A DNA stretch of 64,000 nucleotides, taken from assembly GCA_048937405.1 (NCBI GenBank), contig JBHLNF010000001.1, forward strand, positions 256,001 through 320,000, in the 5' to 3' direction. The stretch is from Promethearchaeota archaeon (lineage in GTDB: Archaea > Asgardarchaeota > Lokiarchaeia > Sigyniarchaeales > SOKP01). The notes under the pieces were generated by a model. It ran no database searches. It saw only the letters and a program-made list of their open reading frames with translations, and was not told the origin of the DNA. Below, piece by piece: positions 4,894 through 59,777 of this stretch. Positions within the stretch are counted from its first letter, which is position 1. Every line of letters starts with the position of its first letter. The position numbers were made by a program, and so were the translations under genes.

Positions 4894-5469
4894 TTGTTTT
4901 TAAAAATATCTTCAAAAAAGGGTTCAAAATACGCAAATGAAGTAAATAATAAACGTAAAAATGGAGAAATTATTGAAAAATTCGAAAATTCTTTAGATAT
5001 TTTATATTCTATGTTATTGAATATTGTTCAATTAAAATCAGGGGCGAGAATAGGAATGACAGTATCTCTTAATATAACTCGAGATACCTCCAGATTATTT
5101 ACTGATAGAATCAATAAATTACACAGTATTATTGATGAATATAAAGAAGTGTTAATTGAAAAAATTATTGAGAAAATTGGAAAGTTCTTTGATATTATTG
5201 CTCCAACAGGACTTTTAAATCCAGAAGATTTTTTAAAATCAGATATTGCTTTAAATATATTAAAAGAATTTATTAATAAATATAATAGAGCTTCGAGTTG
5301 TTTTACTCATATTCCTTTTAATATAAAAAAATTAACTGATCTCTTAATCTTTGAAGGTGATTTCAAGAATTCAGAGATAATAAAAGATCAGAAATTCTTT
5401 GAGGCATTCTTGAAATTGTTGATTTTAATTTCGAGACCTCGCAAAGGCGTCTATGATATCTTTTCCTAA
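4894..5469 (+). CDS. Hypothetical protein
   Basis: 191-aa ORF with genome-typical composition; no family recognised. Confidence 0.55.
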   Translation: MFLKISSKKGSKYANEVNNKRKNGEIIEKFENSLDILYSMLLNIVQLKSGARIGMTVSLNITRDTSRLFTDRINKLHSIIDEYKEVLIEKIIEKIGKFFDIIAPTGLLNPEDFLKSDIALNILKEFINKYNRASSCFTHIPFNIKKLTDLLIFEGDFKNSEIIKDQKFFEAFLKLLILISRPRKGVYDIFS

Positions 5470-5753
5470 GTTTTTTACTTTGTAAAGAAATTTAGTACAC
5501 TTCACAAAAATTTCTAGTAAAGAGAGGAAATTGTGTAATAAAATAGGTTTCCTTTAATCTAATCTTGAAGAGCACTATTTTATAAATTATAATTGAGAGA
5601 CATTAATATTTTAATCATTTGAATTGACTTTTTATTCTGAAATATTGAAGGGATATTTAATAGATTTTGAATACCCCTAGAATATTAACCAAACTTATAC
5701 AAATAGCTATTCCCTTAAGAATTATATTAATTAAAAATTAAAGGAGATTAAAC

Positions 5754-23522: not shown

Positions 23523-24830
23523 CTAAAAATCAATGGTTCTACCATCCCAAGCATATTCAAATATTCTTTTTATTATGTCGTTATCAATATAGCGACCGAC
23601 CATATAAGCAACAGGATCTGTAATAGCATACTGTACTAGGAGATCTAAATTTTTAAAGTATGTTTCTTCAGTAATAACAGGATTCTTCATTTCCTTTACA
23701 CACACTGGACCATTCATTGAATGTATAAAATCTTTGACACTTTGAAGAAATTCATTAAATAACTCATCATCATTTTTATCTTTAGACTCAACACCAAAAA
23801 GTGGACATAAATCCTTCCATCTTTCTGAAATTTTTCTTTGGAAAGCAAGTGTATATGGTAGAAACAACCCTACACAAAGTCCATGATGAACATTGAGTAC
23901 CTTACCCATACTATGTCCTAAGGCATGATCAATTCCAACGCGAGAATGAATAAATCCAAGGCCCCCCATAGATGCTGCTATTTGCATATGGGATCTTGCT
24001 TCTATATCTTTAGCACCATATTTATATGCACGAGGTAAATATTTTAGTATTTCTTTAATAGCAAATATATTCATAGCATCGGCAAAAGGAGTTCCTATAG
24101 TTGATACATAAGCCCCTGCTGCATGAGCTAATGCGTCTAAACCTGTAGCCATGGTTAGAAAAGGCGGCATATCTTTTACAAAATCCGTAATTAAGAATGA
24201 ATAATCAGGAATCAACTCTGGATGAGAAACAGTAAACTTTTTCGGTGGATCAAAACGCATATCAGTTAACATCGAAGCAAGAGTTGCTTCAGATCCCGTT
24301 CCTGACGTTGTTGGAACCGCTATAAAATATTTAAGTTTTTTGCGTACACCAAGAGGTGCTAAAGGTGAAATGCTAAATAGATCCATTTCAGGTTTCTCGT
24401 ATCTAACCATTAAACCTTTCGTAGTATCAAGAACACTCCCTCCGCCAATAGCTAAAAATACTCTAGGTTTAAACTCTTCACATATTTTTGCTGCTTCATC
24501 AAGAGTATGAGTAGGTCCTTCTGGTTTCACTCCCGCCCATATTTTCGCTTCAATTTTTACTTTACTTAACATACCACTAATGAGAGTCCCGTATTTTTCT
24601 GTAAAATCGTCTGTGATTATTAAAACCCTTCTTTCTCCTTCTTCAAGATTAGTATCTAATTGTGTGATTAGTCTAGTTAATGCAGTCATTCCAAAAATAA
24701 TATTCGGTGATCGAAAAGATGTTATTATCCCGGAAAGTGCTCTGGCTTTTAACATAGCCATAAGTTCCATCATTTGCTCTGGTGAAGGTTGAGCTGCTTG
24801 TTCAGGCTCTTGTTTAGTTGAATTTTCCAA
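23523..24830 (-). CDS. Iron-containing alcohol dehydrogenase
   Basis: GGGSVLD, PTTSGTGSE, DALAH and HALGH...HHG metal ligands. Confidence 0.92.
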   Translation of the reverse strand: MENSTKQEPEQAAQPSPEQMMELMAMLKARALSGIITSFRSPNIIFGMTALTRLITQLDTNLEEGERRVLIITDDFTEKYGTLISGMLSKVKIEAKIWAGVKPEGPTHTLDEAAKICEEFKPRVFLAIGGGSVLDTTKGLMVRYEKPEMDLFSISPLAPLGVRKKLKYFIAVPTTSGTGSEATLASMLTDMRFDPPKKFTVSHPELIPDYSFLITDFVKDMPPFLTMATGLDALAHAAGAYVSTIGTPFADAMNIFAIKEILKYLPRAYKYGAKDIEARSHMQIAASMGGLGFIHSRVGIDHALGHSMGKVLNVHHGLCVGLFLPYTLAFQRKISERWKDLCPLFGVESKDKNDDELFNEFLQSVKDFIHSMNGPVCVKEMKNPVITEETYFKNLDLLVQYAITDPVAYMVGRYIDNDIIKRIFEYAWDGRTIDF

Positions 24831-56400: not shown

Positions 56401-57228
56401 ATGAATATGGAATTATCAAAAGATCTGAATATTAAACTTCAAAGACTTCTTTCGTTTTTAAATGGAAAAAAAGTTATCGTAGCTTTTTCGGGAGGTGTAG
56501 ATAGTTCCCTTTTAGCATTTTTATCAAAAAAATATGCAAAAGAAACATTGCTTATAACTGAAAAATCAATTCTTTATCCTGAAGAAGAAATTAAATTAAC
56601 ATCCCAATTTGCTAAAAAATATGATATAAACCATTTGATTATTGAACGAGATCCTTTAAAAAACGAAGAATTCCAATTTAATCCGTCAAATAGATGCTAT
56701 ATTTGTAAAACAGGTCTATATAGTGATATAATTAAAATTAGAGATTCAAAAAAATTTGATTTAATTCTAGATGGTTCAAATATAGATGATCTTTCAGATT
56801 ATAGACCAGGGATGCAAGCTTTAAAAGAGTTAAAGATTTCTACACCGTATATTGAATTTAATATAAATAAAAATGAAATAAGAGATCTTAGTAAATTTTA
56901 TGATCTTGAGGTCCAATCTAAACCATCAATGGCTTGTTTTTCATCTCGAATTCCCTATGGTCAAATTATCAATGAAAAGAAATTATATATGATAAAAGAA
57001 TCTGAAAAATTTCTTAAGAAAAAATTTAATTTAACTCAATTAAGAGTGAGATTACATGAAGAAACTCTTGCCCGTATCGAATTTTTGCCTGAGCATTTAT
57101 CCAAAATTCTAACTGTAAAAAATTTAGAAATAATTAAAAGTAAACTAAAAGAACTAGGATTCACATATATTACTATTGATATTGAGGGATTTAGGTCAGG
57201 TTCAATGAATGAAGCTTTAGATTTATAG
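56401..57228 (+). CDS. larE: LarE-like ATP-dependent sulfur transferase (PP-loop)
   Basis: AFSGGVDS, RCYICK, DYRPG, ACFSSRIPYG and GFRSGSMN motifs. Confidence 0.9.
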   Translation: MNMELSKDLNIKLQRLLSFLNGKKVIVAFSGGVDSSLLAFLSKKYAKETLLITEKSILYPEEEIKLTSQFAKKYDINHLIIERDPLKNEEFQFNPSNRCYICKTGLYSDIIKIRDSKKFDLILDGSNIDDLSDYRPGMQALKELKISTPYIEFNINKNEIRDLSKFYDLEVQSKPSMACFSSRIPYGQIINEKKLYMIKESEKFLKKKFNLTQLRVRLHEETLARIEFLPEHLSKILTVKNLEIIKSKLKELGFTYITIDIEGFRSGSMNEALDL

Positions 57229-57242
57229 TAACTATCATTATT

Positions 57243-58660
57243 TTAATTTTCCTTTCTAATAAATTTGATAATCTTTATACGCTTCTCTAATGCTTTAATT
57301 TCTGCTTTTTTAACCTCGTTTTCCATTTTTTCAAGCAACTCAGGTGTCTCTTCTCCAACCTCTTGTTTTATTTTAGTATAGGCAGATTCTCTGAATTTTG
57401 GCAGGATTTCTTTTCTATTTTCATCAGAAAAAGTAAAAAAAACTTGGTTTGAGTCATCTACATATCCTATTTCATCACATTTGATATTAATTCTTTTGAG
57501 ATCAGAGATAATTTTCTCTGCGACGGTTGCTGAGCAATAAATTAAAAGAGCATCTAAAGAAACTCCTAAATAATCAACTCCAACTTTTCTCAACATGTTT
57601 AGAACATTCTGATTTACTAGATTTCTTACTTTTTCTTCAAATATATTTACACCGCATTTAGCTTCATAATTTATCTCATATAAATCTCCTCTTAAACCAC
57701 CATTTGTGACATCACACATTGCTCTAATCTCATCTATATAATCTGAGTTTAAAATAGTTTCACAAGCCTCTAAGAACTTTATATTCATCGTTTCTTTTAC
57801 AACATCATGATTTCCAGAATATATTGCCGTAGTTGTTATTGTTCCACCGCCAGCACCTTCAGTCATTAAGATTTTATCTCCAACTTGTATATTCCTTCTT
57901 GCTAATAACCTATTACAAACTCCTATTGCGCTTATTCCACCGACTAGTCTATTACCAATTACCATATCTCCTCCAATTCTCAAAGTTGAACCAGCGGTTA
58001 TTGGTACATTGGCTAAATCAGAAACTGTCGATACACCAGCTATGAAATCAAATAATTTCCCTACATCAGCGTCATCTCCAAGATGGACATCAATCATTAT
58101 AGAAATTGGTTTTGCGCCTTTAACATAGAGATCTCGTAGTGCGGCTCTCGATACGCTTCACGCAACTTATTACGCGAACTTACGTGAAAACCACACAAGA
58201 ATGGAAAGTCACTTAAACGACTGTGAATACCTTCCATTTTTGATACAATGATTAAATTATCTTCGGCTTTATATCCTTCAATATCACTAATCCTCACAGC
58301 ACCGGCATCATCTAAGGAGCTAGGTGATAGATATGCTCTCTGCTCTGTTTCAGATAACTCTGCGATGAGTTTATGAACAAAAAAGTCGCCTGATCCCCTA
58401 CAACCTATTCCTTGTTTACCAATGGTCACATTTGCCTTATTAATATCTAATAAATATCTCATAAAGGGATCTGAAACTGTCTTTATATCACTTTTTTTAC
58501 ATTCTTCATATATCGCTTCAGCAAGTGAGGTTGCGGACTCTACCTCAATGTCTTTAAAATCCAGATATTCTTTAACAAGACGTAAAATAATTTCTTCCTT
58601 TGTAAAACCTTTTCTCATTAACCTTCTTGTTAAACCTTCTAAATCACTCAAATTGCTCAA
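57243..58660 (-). CDS. AIR-synthase-related (PurM/HypE/SelD superfamily) protein, 462 aa after splicing; exons 58660-58180 and 58150-57243
   Basis: Two track ORFs are halves of one gene: GCRGSGDF, DDAG and GIHSRLSDFPFLCGFHV continue as TRAALRDLYVKGAKPISIMIDVHLGDD in another frame; DVTNGGLRGD downstream. Confidence 0.88.
58151..58179 (-). other. Putative 29-nt mRNA intron with canonical bulge-helix-bulge motif
   Basis: TGTGGTTTTC-ACGT-AAG-TTCGCGTAA-TAAG-TTGCGTGAA-GCGT-ATC-GAGAGCCGCA gives a 10-bp exon helix, 4-bp central helix, two 3-nt bulges and a 9-bp intron stem. Confidence 0.88.
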
Positions 58661-58766: not shown

Positions 58767-59777
58767 ATGACTTCTTTAAGGATAACAACCCCATGTAGGA
58801 TACATCTTTCTTTAATAGATGAAAATGGATACACAGGGAGAGTTGATGGAGGTATTGGTCTTATGCTAGACCGTCCTAATGTCGTTTTTGAAGCTTCTAA
58901 TAGTGCTGAGGAGTTTAAAATCGAAGCTCATAGATATTATCGAGAGTCGATTGAAGTCATTAATGAAATTGCTTCAAAAGTATTTAAGAAATATAATATT
59001 AGTAATAAAAATTTTCATTTTAATCTTAAAAGATATTTCCCTTCACATGTAGGGTTGGGTTCTAAGACACAATTATCCTTAGCTATAGCTACGGCCATAA
59101 CGAAATTGAAAAATTTTACTCATTTAGCTCATAAGGATCTTACTAAATTGGTAGAAAGGGGTGGAACATCTGGAATTGGGTGGAAAGGTTTTAAAACAGG
59201 GGGTTTTATTTTAGATGGAGGACATGATTTTGGTATTGGGAAAGAAAAAGAAACGTTTTTACCATCTTCAGCATCAACTTCTGTTAGTCCTGCAATAACG
59301 ATTTTTAGACATGATATCCCAGAAAATTGGAGATTTGTACTAGTGATCCCAAATATAAAAAAGGGGGCTTATGGAGATGAAGAAATCTCTGTTTTTAAAA
59401 ATTTTACACCAGTTCAAAGAAGTGAAGTAAATGAAATATCAAATCAAGTGATTATGAAGATATTACCTGGTATTATTAAAAAAGATTTAACGTGCTTTGG
59501 AGAAGGTTTAAACAAAATCCAGAGTTTAGGTTTTAAAAAAATTGAAATTGAGTTACAGCATAAAGTTGTCAAAGATTTACTACGCTTCTTTGAGGATTAT
59601 GGACTAAAAGCTTATGGTATGTCCTCATTTGGCCCTAGTGTTGTTGGAATTGTAGAATCAAATTCAGAAGCGGAAATACTTTTAAGAGAAGTTCAGACCG
59701 CCCAAAAACATCGTGGAGGTCATATCTATATTTGTAAGCCTAATAATACTGGAGCAAAAATTGAATTTATAGATTGA
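58767..59777 (+). CDS. Beta-ribofuranosylaminobenzene 5'-phosphate synthase (GHMP family)
   Basis: PCRIHLSLID, HVGLGSKTQL, RGGTSGIG, GGFILDGGH and GMSSFGP motifs. Confidence 0.9.
   Translation: MTSLRITTPCRIHLSLIDENGYTGRVDGGIGLMLDRPNVVFEASNSAEEFKIEAHRYYRESIEVINEIASKVFKKYNISNKNFHFNLKRYFPSHVGLGSKTQLSLAIATAITKLKNFTHLAHKDLTKLVERGGTSGIGWKGFKTGGFILDGGHDFGIGKEKETFLPSSASTSVSPAITIFRHDIPENWRFVLVIPNIKKGAYGDEEISVFKNFTPVQRSEVNEISNQVIMKILPGIIKKDLTCFGEGLNKIQSLGFKKIEIELQHKVVKDLLRFFEDYGLKAYGMSSFGPSVVGIVESNSEAEILLREVQTAQKHRGGHIYICKPNNTGAKIEFID

Follow-up and report, generated by a model that had tools for sequence, protein, structure and literature searches.

Among archaeal coding sequences, the searchable literature documents splicing at the motif called bulge-helix-bulge (BHB) only for the crenarchaeal cbf5 gene, with other cases predicted and none confirmed (PMC2738675); a paper of 2020 speaks of 'only one example' (PMC7714728), and a paper of 2025 cites only the cbf5 work (PMC12397907). 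The strict form of the motif, hBHBh', in which two 3-nucleotide bulges flank a 4-base-pair helix, is the substrate of the archaeal splicing endonuclease (PMC4090602, PMC5829648). The window described here is a stretch of 64,000 nucleotides from a Promethearchaeota archaeon with a Lokiarchaeia-type genome (assembly GCA_048937405.1, contig JBHLNF010000001.1, positions 256,001 to 320,000; positions below are those of the window). The sole AIR synthase-related gene of this genome, on the minus strand of the window, is probably interrupted by a 29-nucleotide BHB intron that is removed by splicing, a reading to which a probability of about 90% can be given. BHB splicing of mRNA is a known mechanism, from cbf5, and the AIRS-related gene is a new host family. 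The searchable literature yielded no description of an intron of this kind from Asgard archaea or from the AIRS-related family.

The cbf5 intron (Watanabe 2002; Yoshinari 2006; Yokobori 2009, PMC2738675) resembles the present one in being short, at 16-44 nucleotides there and 29 or 30 here, and in lying within coding sequence. In both, the intron sits at a catalytic or most-conserved motif, the BHB is formed partly of exon sequence, and the host has a heteromeric EndA. Both are spread patchily among relatives, which was read for cbf5 as gain and loss, and both have been overlooked by annotation pipelines. The gene family differs, being here PurM/AIRS-like and placed beside methanopterin-pathway genes, and so does the phylum (Asgard, Lokiarchaeia); with PF00586 and PF02769 in the host gene of a Lokiarchaeia-type genome, the locus falls outside the cbf5 family, though it would work alike. 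Splicing of cbf5 was shown by reverse transcription PCR and in vitro cleavage, whereas the evidence here is comparative. Lastly, the intron here appears to be confined to a single allelic type of exon 1 and to move between species together with it, a behaviour undescribed for cbf5.

Another mRNA substrate of the tRNA splicing endonuclease is the intron in the 5' untranslated region of the HVO_1309 mRNA of Haloferax volcanii (Schwarz et al. 2020, PMC7714728), but that intron lies in an untranslated leader, leaves the reading frame uninterrupted, and belongs to a euryarchaeon with a homodimeric EndA. The BHB introns of archaeal tRNA and rRNA (Marck & Grosjean 2003; PMC11291895; bioRxiv 10.64898/2026.10.13.758758) share with the present one the 3-nucleotide bulges, the 4-base-pair helix, the enzymes and the range of lengths, and those of Asgard tRNAs are multiple and non-canonical (PMC11291895; bioRxiv 10.64898/2026.10.13.758758). 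The difference is that the host transcript here is protein-coding, such that splicing must compete with translation and restore the reading frame.

Two open reading frames (ORFs) that overlap in different frames are called separately at the locus, one of 187 residues with a TTG start (58097-58660) and one of 284 residues (57243-58097). Removal of 58151-58179 instead joins ...CAC GUA A to CG AGA GCC... and leaves 463 codons, including the stop, from the TTG at 58660. Exon 1 (58180-58660, minus strand) then comprises 160 codons and 1 nucleotide, aligns to residues 1-160 of 463-residue homologues, and codes for an extension at the N terminus together with the opening ~40 positions of the AIRS N domain. 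Exon 2 (57243-58150, minus strand) comprises 2 nucleotides, 301 codons and a stop, and matches the Pfam families AIRS_C (PF02769, 1.3e-12) and AIRS (PF00586, 1.7e-5), the latter only from position 43 of the 112 in the profile. Exon 1 alone has no Pfam match. The AIRS N domain is therefore divided between the two exons, and the interruption falls within its conserved GFHV|TRAALRD motif. Without splicing, translation would reach a stop 27 codons past the junction in the window, and at the TGA of the intron in relatives with a 30-nucleotide form.

The predicted splice product, GFHVTRAALRDLYVKG, is free of gaps against the AIR synthase-related proteins of ~463 residues from Lokiarchaeia, and reads SRLSDFPFLCGFHVTRAALRDLYVKGAKPISIMIDVHLGDDADVGKLFDF without a gap against 11 full-length homologues, across an almost invariant motif in the block where the family is most conserved. 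The predicted junction of the spliced mRNA is CACGUAACGAGAGCC, also given as GGUUUUCACGUAACGAGAGCC. If the cut is shifted one base earlier, the product reads HVSRA, with Ser, and if it is shifted one base later, HVRRA, with Arg; the homologues have Thr, rarely Ala. Therefore, the conserved Thr is restored only by a cut after the second bulge nucleotide. The spliced chain holds the AIRS N domain and AIRS_C together, which places the protein in the PurM/AIR-synthase-related superfamily. A search with exon 2 returned thousands of relatives, the best of them 460-467 residues long and 76-86% identical (82-86% for exon 2 of same-genus homologues), and the closest proteins are named AIR synthase-related by NCBI, from Lokiarchaeia or Promethearchaeota. 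No NCBIfam equivalog lies above its cut-off for the host protein. There are two in-frame TTG codons, at 58660 and 58651, and the homologues start at the second (LSDLEGL...); from that position the host protein may have 459 rather than 462 residues.

The intron, GUUCGCGUAAUAAGUUGCGUGAAGCGUAU (58151-58179, minus strand), lies within a complete hBHBh' motif (58139-58196, minus strand), as seen by RNAfold and by counts of pairs on 32 and 37 variants. The exon helix h has 11 base pairs, formed by GUGUGGUUUUC (58196-58186) with GAGAGCCGCAC (58149-58139). The central helix has 4, formed by ACGU (58185-58182) with GCGU (58156-58153), and is flanked on opposite strands by the 3-nucleotide bulges AAG (58181-58179) and AUC (58152-58150). 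The intron stem h' has 9 base pairs, formed by UUCGCGUAA (58178-58170) with UUGCGUGAA (58165-58157), and is closed by the loop UAAG (58169-58166), all of these elements being on the minus strand. Read along that strand, the text at the break is UGUGUGGUUUUC ACGU AAG UUCGCGUAA UAAG UUGCGUGAA GCGU AUC GAGAGCCGCAC. The motif is the minimum free energy (MFE) fold and the centroid fold alike of 58130-58205, at -29 kcal/mol, while dinucleotide shuffles of the same segment reach -16.7 +/- 2.8 kcal/mol (z = -4.4, with 0 of 200 as stable).

The sequence-only reading of the window had described this fold, a gene split into two ORFs by a GC-richer insert of 29 nucleotides, and a cleavage rule that removes exactly 58151-58179 to yield CAC GTA ACG AGA GCC and a continuous protein of 462 residues. 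The identical MFE and centroid structures, the ORF listing, a G+C content of 45% in the insert against ~28% in the whole window, and a recomputation of the junction agree with that description, as does the alignment with the 11 homologues, for which a gap-free HVTRAALRD in intronless relatives had been predicted. Neither the window nor, by blastn-short, the genome holds a further copy of the intron, and hence it is not a member of a repeat family here. Rfam returned zero families at E <= 1 in a scan of 57900-58450.

The pre-mRNA would fold into hBHBh' from 15 nucleotides of exon 1, the intron, and 11 nucleotides of exon 2. A heteromeric EndA would cleave after the second nucleotide of each 3-nucleotide bulge, with predicted cuts after A58180 and U58151, and RtcB would ligate the exons, with an intron circle probably formed too, so that the full 462-residue enzyme would be encoded by the spliced mRNA only. 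We infer cleavage and ligation in the cell from the motif, the repair of the protein, conservation, selection and the enzyme genes, each of which is observed. The sequence features expected of a BHB intron are present together, namely the geometry of bulges and helix, the flanking h and h', a predicted functional splice product, compensatory changes, and genes for the enzymes.

The genome (4.47 Mb in 29 contigs, 100% complete by markers) encodes two tRNA_int_endo proteins (PF01974, EndA; 103 and 71 bits) and an RtcB (PF01139, 565 bits). The first EndA is an alpha-like ORF of 197 residues (L001, 1453-2046) with a Tyr/His/Lys catalytic triad, read by eye from the sequence, and its best solved relative is the EndA of Aeropyrum pernix, chain 3p1z_B; the second is a paralogue of 200 residues (L002, 1210-1812) that does not have the His. 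The Asgard EndA has been reported to be an (alpha-beta)2 enzyme (PMC5829648), which the alpha-like protein and its His-less paralogue would fit. ARAGORN recognises no more than 14 tRNA genes across the genome, of which 9 have introns, and the majority of the tRNA genes must contain interruptions that ARAGORN cannot model. This low count fits the heavy interruption reported for Asgard tRNA genes (PMC11291895; bioRxiv 10.64898/2026.10.13.758758).

A scan of the same genome looked for strict hBHBh' motifs that, once taken out, fuse two open frames, each with at least 50 codons, for introns of up to 134 nucleotides. The AIRS-related site, with its 11 base pairs in h and 9 in h', comes first by a wide margin among 186 filtered candidates. 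In all the others the helices are short and the motif is absent from the MFE fold, and none is comparable; they are mostly chance joins, many of which span gene boundaries. Within these limits, the scan makes no case for a second mRNA intron in the genome. Only one other match has a long outer helix (9 base pairs), near 24254 on the minus strand of contig G000:C18, with a candidate intron of 25 nucleotides. Its inner stem has 3 base pairs, its flanking frames run to only 66-69 codons, and the motif is missing from its MFE fold, such that this match is probably due to chance.

The insert recurs in relatives. In a protein search of 60 related genomes, the same-genus gene is continuous in 24, and 6 more carry a 30-nucleotide insert at exactly the same codon. 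By pattern search, the insert is present in 10 of the 54 species genomes of the genus, and ~25 of 54 pattern matches on metagenome contigs are true carriers, the remainder being chance matches of other lengths. Five additional carriers were reached via their proteins alone, and their nucleotides are therefore unbiased by the search. Beyond the 10 species genomes, metagenomes contribute ~27 variants. There are 37 distinct variants in total, 36 with 30 nucleotides and that of the window with 29, the loop being UAAG in the shorter form and UAAGU in the longer. All 36 of the longer forms have an in-frame UGA within the 3' arm of the stem (an invariant T-G-A in alignment columns 41-43). An assembly artefact was considered as the origin of the insert and is excluded by recurrence in dozens of independent assemblies.

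Standard pairs occupy 97.5% of the pair cells across the 37 variants (98.5% in h and 96.4% in h'), against 30-57% if the partners are slid by 1-3 columns. Five pairs have changed on both sides, a number reached by 6 of 500 shuffles, and 17 cells have changed on both sides, a number reached by none of the 500. Covariation scores 0.179, and slid partners score no higher than 0.077. Among the double changes are C-G/U-A/U-G and G-C/A-U, both within the intron stem, and a switch from C-G to U-A within the central helix of variant L105; free variation is found in the unpaired loop and in the third base of the bulge. The sequence-only reading had expected compensatory changes in related genomes, and these are the five pairs changed on both sides; it had also named homologues naturally split at this point as a finding that would speak against it, and the one continuous frame in 24 same-genus genomes answers that concern. 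A spliced mRNA in an Asgard archaeon, as it had proposed, is consistent with every test that could be computed, from the alignment and the recurrence to the compensatory changes and the genes for EndA and RtcB.

Once spliced in silico, all carriers whose gene ends inside the contig show a single open frame, 458-497 codons long from stop to stop. In 20 full-length carriers, the median rates of nonsynonymous (dN) and synonymous (dS) substitution are 0.147 and 1.07, with a dN/dS of 0.13, and both exons are under purifying selection. The insert is ~90% identical per column while the synonymous sites are nearly saturated, which fits a structure needed for splicing, unlike a dead insertion. The codons of the exon helix are near-invariant in 9 carriers found by protein (TTG TGT GGT TTT CAC GTA A|CG AGA GCC GCA CTA), whereas in 22 non-carriers the same codons occur in 2-6 synonymous forms each and the helix cannot form.

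Several points weigh against the splicing of this gene. The whole case rests on DNA comparison, and most variants are closely related, such that the covariation gives moderate rather than overwhelming support. The exon columns of the motif were partly preset by the pattern used in the genome and metagenome searches; those columns are therefore uninformative, and the intron columns are mainly the informative ones. In four variants (L033, L036, L052 and L091), GCGG replaces GCGU (alignment columns 16 and 49), which turns the outer pair of this helix, adjoining the 3' bulge, into an A.G mismatch in the central helix. The motif of these four is a relaxed BHB, for which an EndA of broad specificity would be needed. 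Finally, the lone length of 29 nucleotides could be a homopolymer error in this assembly, with TTT read as TT, although the 30-nucleotide form carries a stop codon and such an error would therefore leave the reading unchanged.

Rather than being joined by RNA splicing, the two halves might be translated separately into polypeptides that assemble, given that an ATG (MIDVHL...) used by gene callers lies 18 codons past the insert. These 18 codons, RAALRDLYVKGAKPISI, contain no start, yet their amino acids are conserved in all carriers, and hence they could be translated only from a spliced message, in a frame that nothing but splicing reaches. Separate translation would also break the AIRS N domain in the middle, at its most conserved motif, and would leave the conserved BHB with no reason to exist, all of which makes this arrangement highly improbable.

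Slightly less probable still is translational recoding, either by read-through of the TGA in a 30-nucleotide insert or by hopping from one GUA to another 27-30 nucleotides downstream. The length is a multiple of 3 in all variants except that of the window, GUA precedes both bulges in most variants, and two contigs are annotated with TGA read as Trp, which gives an insertion of 10 residues. Read-through of the 29-nucleotide insert would nevertheless shift the frame, and an insert that is 29 nucleotides long here and 30 elsewhere, out of frame, is not read as codons. As for hopping, L105 has AUA as its landing triplet and L033, L036, L052 and L091 have GGA, with the pairings kept, the take-off codon is not followed by a stop codon, and the product would have Ser where the homologues have Thr. 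In addition, the variation within the insert tracks base-pairing rather than codons. The two annotated contigs are L105 (319-1743, protein P0029) and L106 (127-1503, protein P0123), for which the in-frame TGA of the intron seems to have misled the selection of a genetic code; both proteins were considered as cases of stop-free introns and rejected, since they are carriers translated with TGA as Trp.

Least probable of all is a dead gene, in which the 29- or 30-nucleotide insertion made a frameshift or stop and the two ORFs (called separately in every assembly, at 164-187 and 281-287 residues) are decaying remnants, because both halves stay open in over 35 variants of carriers at the low dN/dS and near-saturated dS given above, the insert is far more conserved than synonymous sites with its pairings kept, and a protein search found no second copy of the AIRS-related gene in the genome.

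A search of the protein databases for contiguous proteins with carrier-type codons or residues (FLCGFHVTRA) found the Leu only in P0119, whose exon 1 belongs to another type than that of the carriers, and no evidence derived from RNA. Carrier alleles are also present in the LAZR01 marine-sediment metagenome (L050, LAZR01002163.1; L055, LAZR01012045.1; L057, LAZR01010889.1), whose proteins bear LCGC14 tags (P0086) and which we take to be the original Loki's Castle data set. The intron may thus have gone unnoticed in public sequence for years, annotated as a pair of neighboring ORFs.

Exon 1 and the intron together (58151-58660, minus strand) form a block with ancestry unlike that of the rest of the locus, as indicated by a drop in identity to genome G036, its nearest relative and a non-carrier, and by conflicts between trees. 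In sliding windows along the codon alignment, identity over exon 1 is 0.78-0.95 within carriers and 0.58-0.80 between the groups, and from ~11 codons into exon 2 carriers and non-carriers are undifferentiated. A DNA tree of exon 1 for 20 carriers, from which 6 codons around the junction were omitted, places 19 of the 20 on one side of a 99% branch and does not reject their monophyly (approximately unbiased (AU) test, p = 0.44). In the tree of exon 2 the carriers are scattered, strongly supported branches requiring no fewer than 6 changes, and their monophyly is rejected (log-likelihood difference 585, AU p = 2.4e-6). The tree of the whole protein does not clearly reject monophyly (AU p = 0.067), a matter settled by the separate exon trees.

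The neighbors of the gene follow exon 2. Upstream, and divergent, is the gene for beta-ribofuranosylaminobenzene 5'-phosphate (beta-RFAP) synthase of the methanopterin pathway (58767-59777, plus strand; NCBIfam NF040726, 344 bits, above cut-off); downstream, and convergent, is a gene for an ATP-dependent sulfur transferase of the LarE family (56401-57228, plus strand; NCBIfam TIGR00268, 267 bits). The trees of both reject monophyly of the carriers (AU p = 3.5e-5 for beta-RFAP synthase and 5e-69 for LarE), and in the trees of these flanking genes the genome of the window pairs with G036 at 100% support. Nucleotide identity to G036 is 85-98% over both neighbors, the spacer and exon 2, against 63-76% from the start codon at 58660 to 58151. 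Five pairs of a carrier and its nearest non-carrier, from differing parts of the exon-2 tree (support of at least 96 in four and 84 in one), show a switch of ancestry 0 to +57 nucleotides after the intron. The 5' boundary varies, and lies at the start codon here, at about -150 nucleotides in G025, while in other carriers it is found upstream of the gene. These patterns suggest that exon 1 and the intron have been laterally exchanged among species of the genus by recombination, with the intron tied to a single, deeply diverged allelic type of exon 1, and that the intron may sit at, or anchor, the 3' breakpoint of the exchanged module.

Contig L101 (G024:C30) has a decayed exon 1 of the non-carrier type at 5207-5530 on the plus strand, with ~105 codons and internal stops, adjoining the beta-RFAP synthase gene. 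This remnant is 85% identical to exon 1 of G018 and 66% identical to the working, carrier-type exon 1 of G024, which lies 4 kb downstream of it, past unrelated ORFs. It looks like the displaced original exon 1, the footprint of an insertion of donor DNA.

The mosaics alone might be explained by assemblers that switched between co-occurring relatives at conserved k-mers, given that all of the genomes are metagenome-assembled and that the breakpoints fall in conserved sequence, at a start region with a 97-98% identical spacer and at the conserved start of exon 2. The same mosaics, however, were assembled independently from different samples, which argues against chimeras: identity in both exons is 100% between L071 and L083, 99.6-99.8% between L030 and L086, and 97-99% among L050, L055 and L080. 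A switch in the assembly graph cannot create the G024 remnant and the 4-kb insertion next to it, which lie on a contig of 126 kb, and the block of the window lies inside a contig of 1.05 Mb. Assembly switching is therefore an unlikely source of the discordance, though it is a stronger contender than any of the alternatives to splicing.

As to what drives the exchange, it is tentatively proposed, and on balance doubtful, that the mini-intron is an Asgard mobile element that invades intronless alleles at one fixed site, CATGTAAC|TCGAGC, by a break-initiated, homing-like conversion that drags the upstream exon along; an archaeal mRNA intron would then delimit an exchangeable exon module. In the homing of group I and archaeal rRNA introns, an intron-plus allele likewise replaces an intron-minus allele together with flanking exon, with a fixed boundary at the insertion site and an asymmetric tract. 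Those introns differ in that the 30-nucleotide intron here holds no homing-endonuclease gene, and with 29 or 30 nucleotides, and no nuclease or integrase domain found by Pfam in the tested ORFs of the upstream inserts of three carriers, it does not qualify as a mobile intron of the homing-endonuclease class. Alternatively, the intron could merely mark an old allele, and ordinary homologous recombination, with crossovers suppressed by divergence within exon 1, could account for these patterns too.

The spacer between the beta-RFAP synthase and AIRS-related genes has 107 nucleotides in the window and holds varied inserts in other carriers (L101 5090-9623, L103 8457-9953, L104 7088-9799, L099 1-945). 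Their contents include a TPR protein with unknown ORFs, a GGR-like gene, and a PAS kinase with a response regulator, and a 2-kb stretch in L104 has no ORF of at least 90 residues. The spacer appears to be a hot spot for insertion. By Pfam, no nuclease or integrase domain was found in the tested ORFs of the inserts upstream of exon 1 in G024, G030 and G077, and the upstream regions of carriers share no unexplained ORF, only ordinary neighbor genes.

In short, if the gene is spliced as proposed, it would be a well-supported second gene family with splicing of a coding sequence by EndA and RtcB, in the archaeal group closest to eukaryotes. Asgard mRNAs may accordingly carry introns that need removal before translation. 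Gene callers systematically miscall such genes, either as two ORFs or under a wrong genetic code. An intron that bounds an exchanged exon module offers a system for the study of intron gain in archaea and of recombination at the level of exons.

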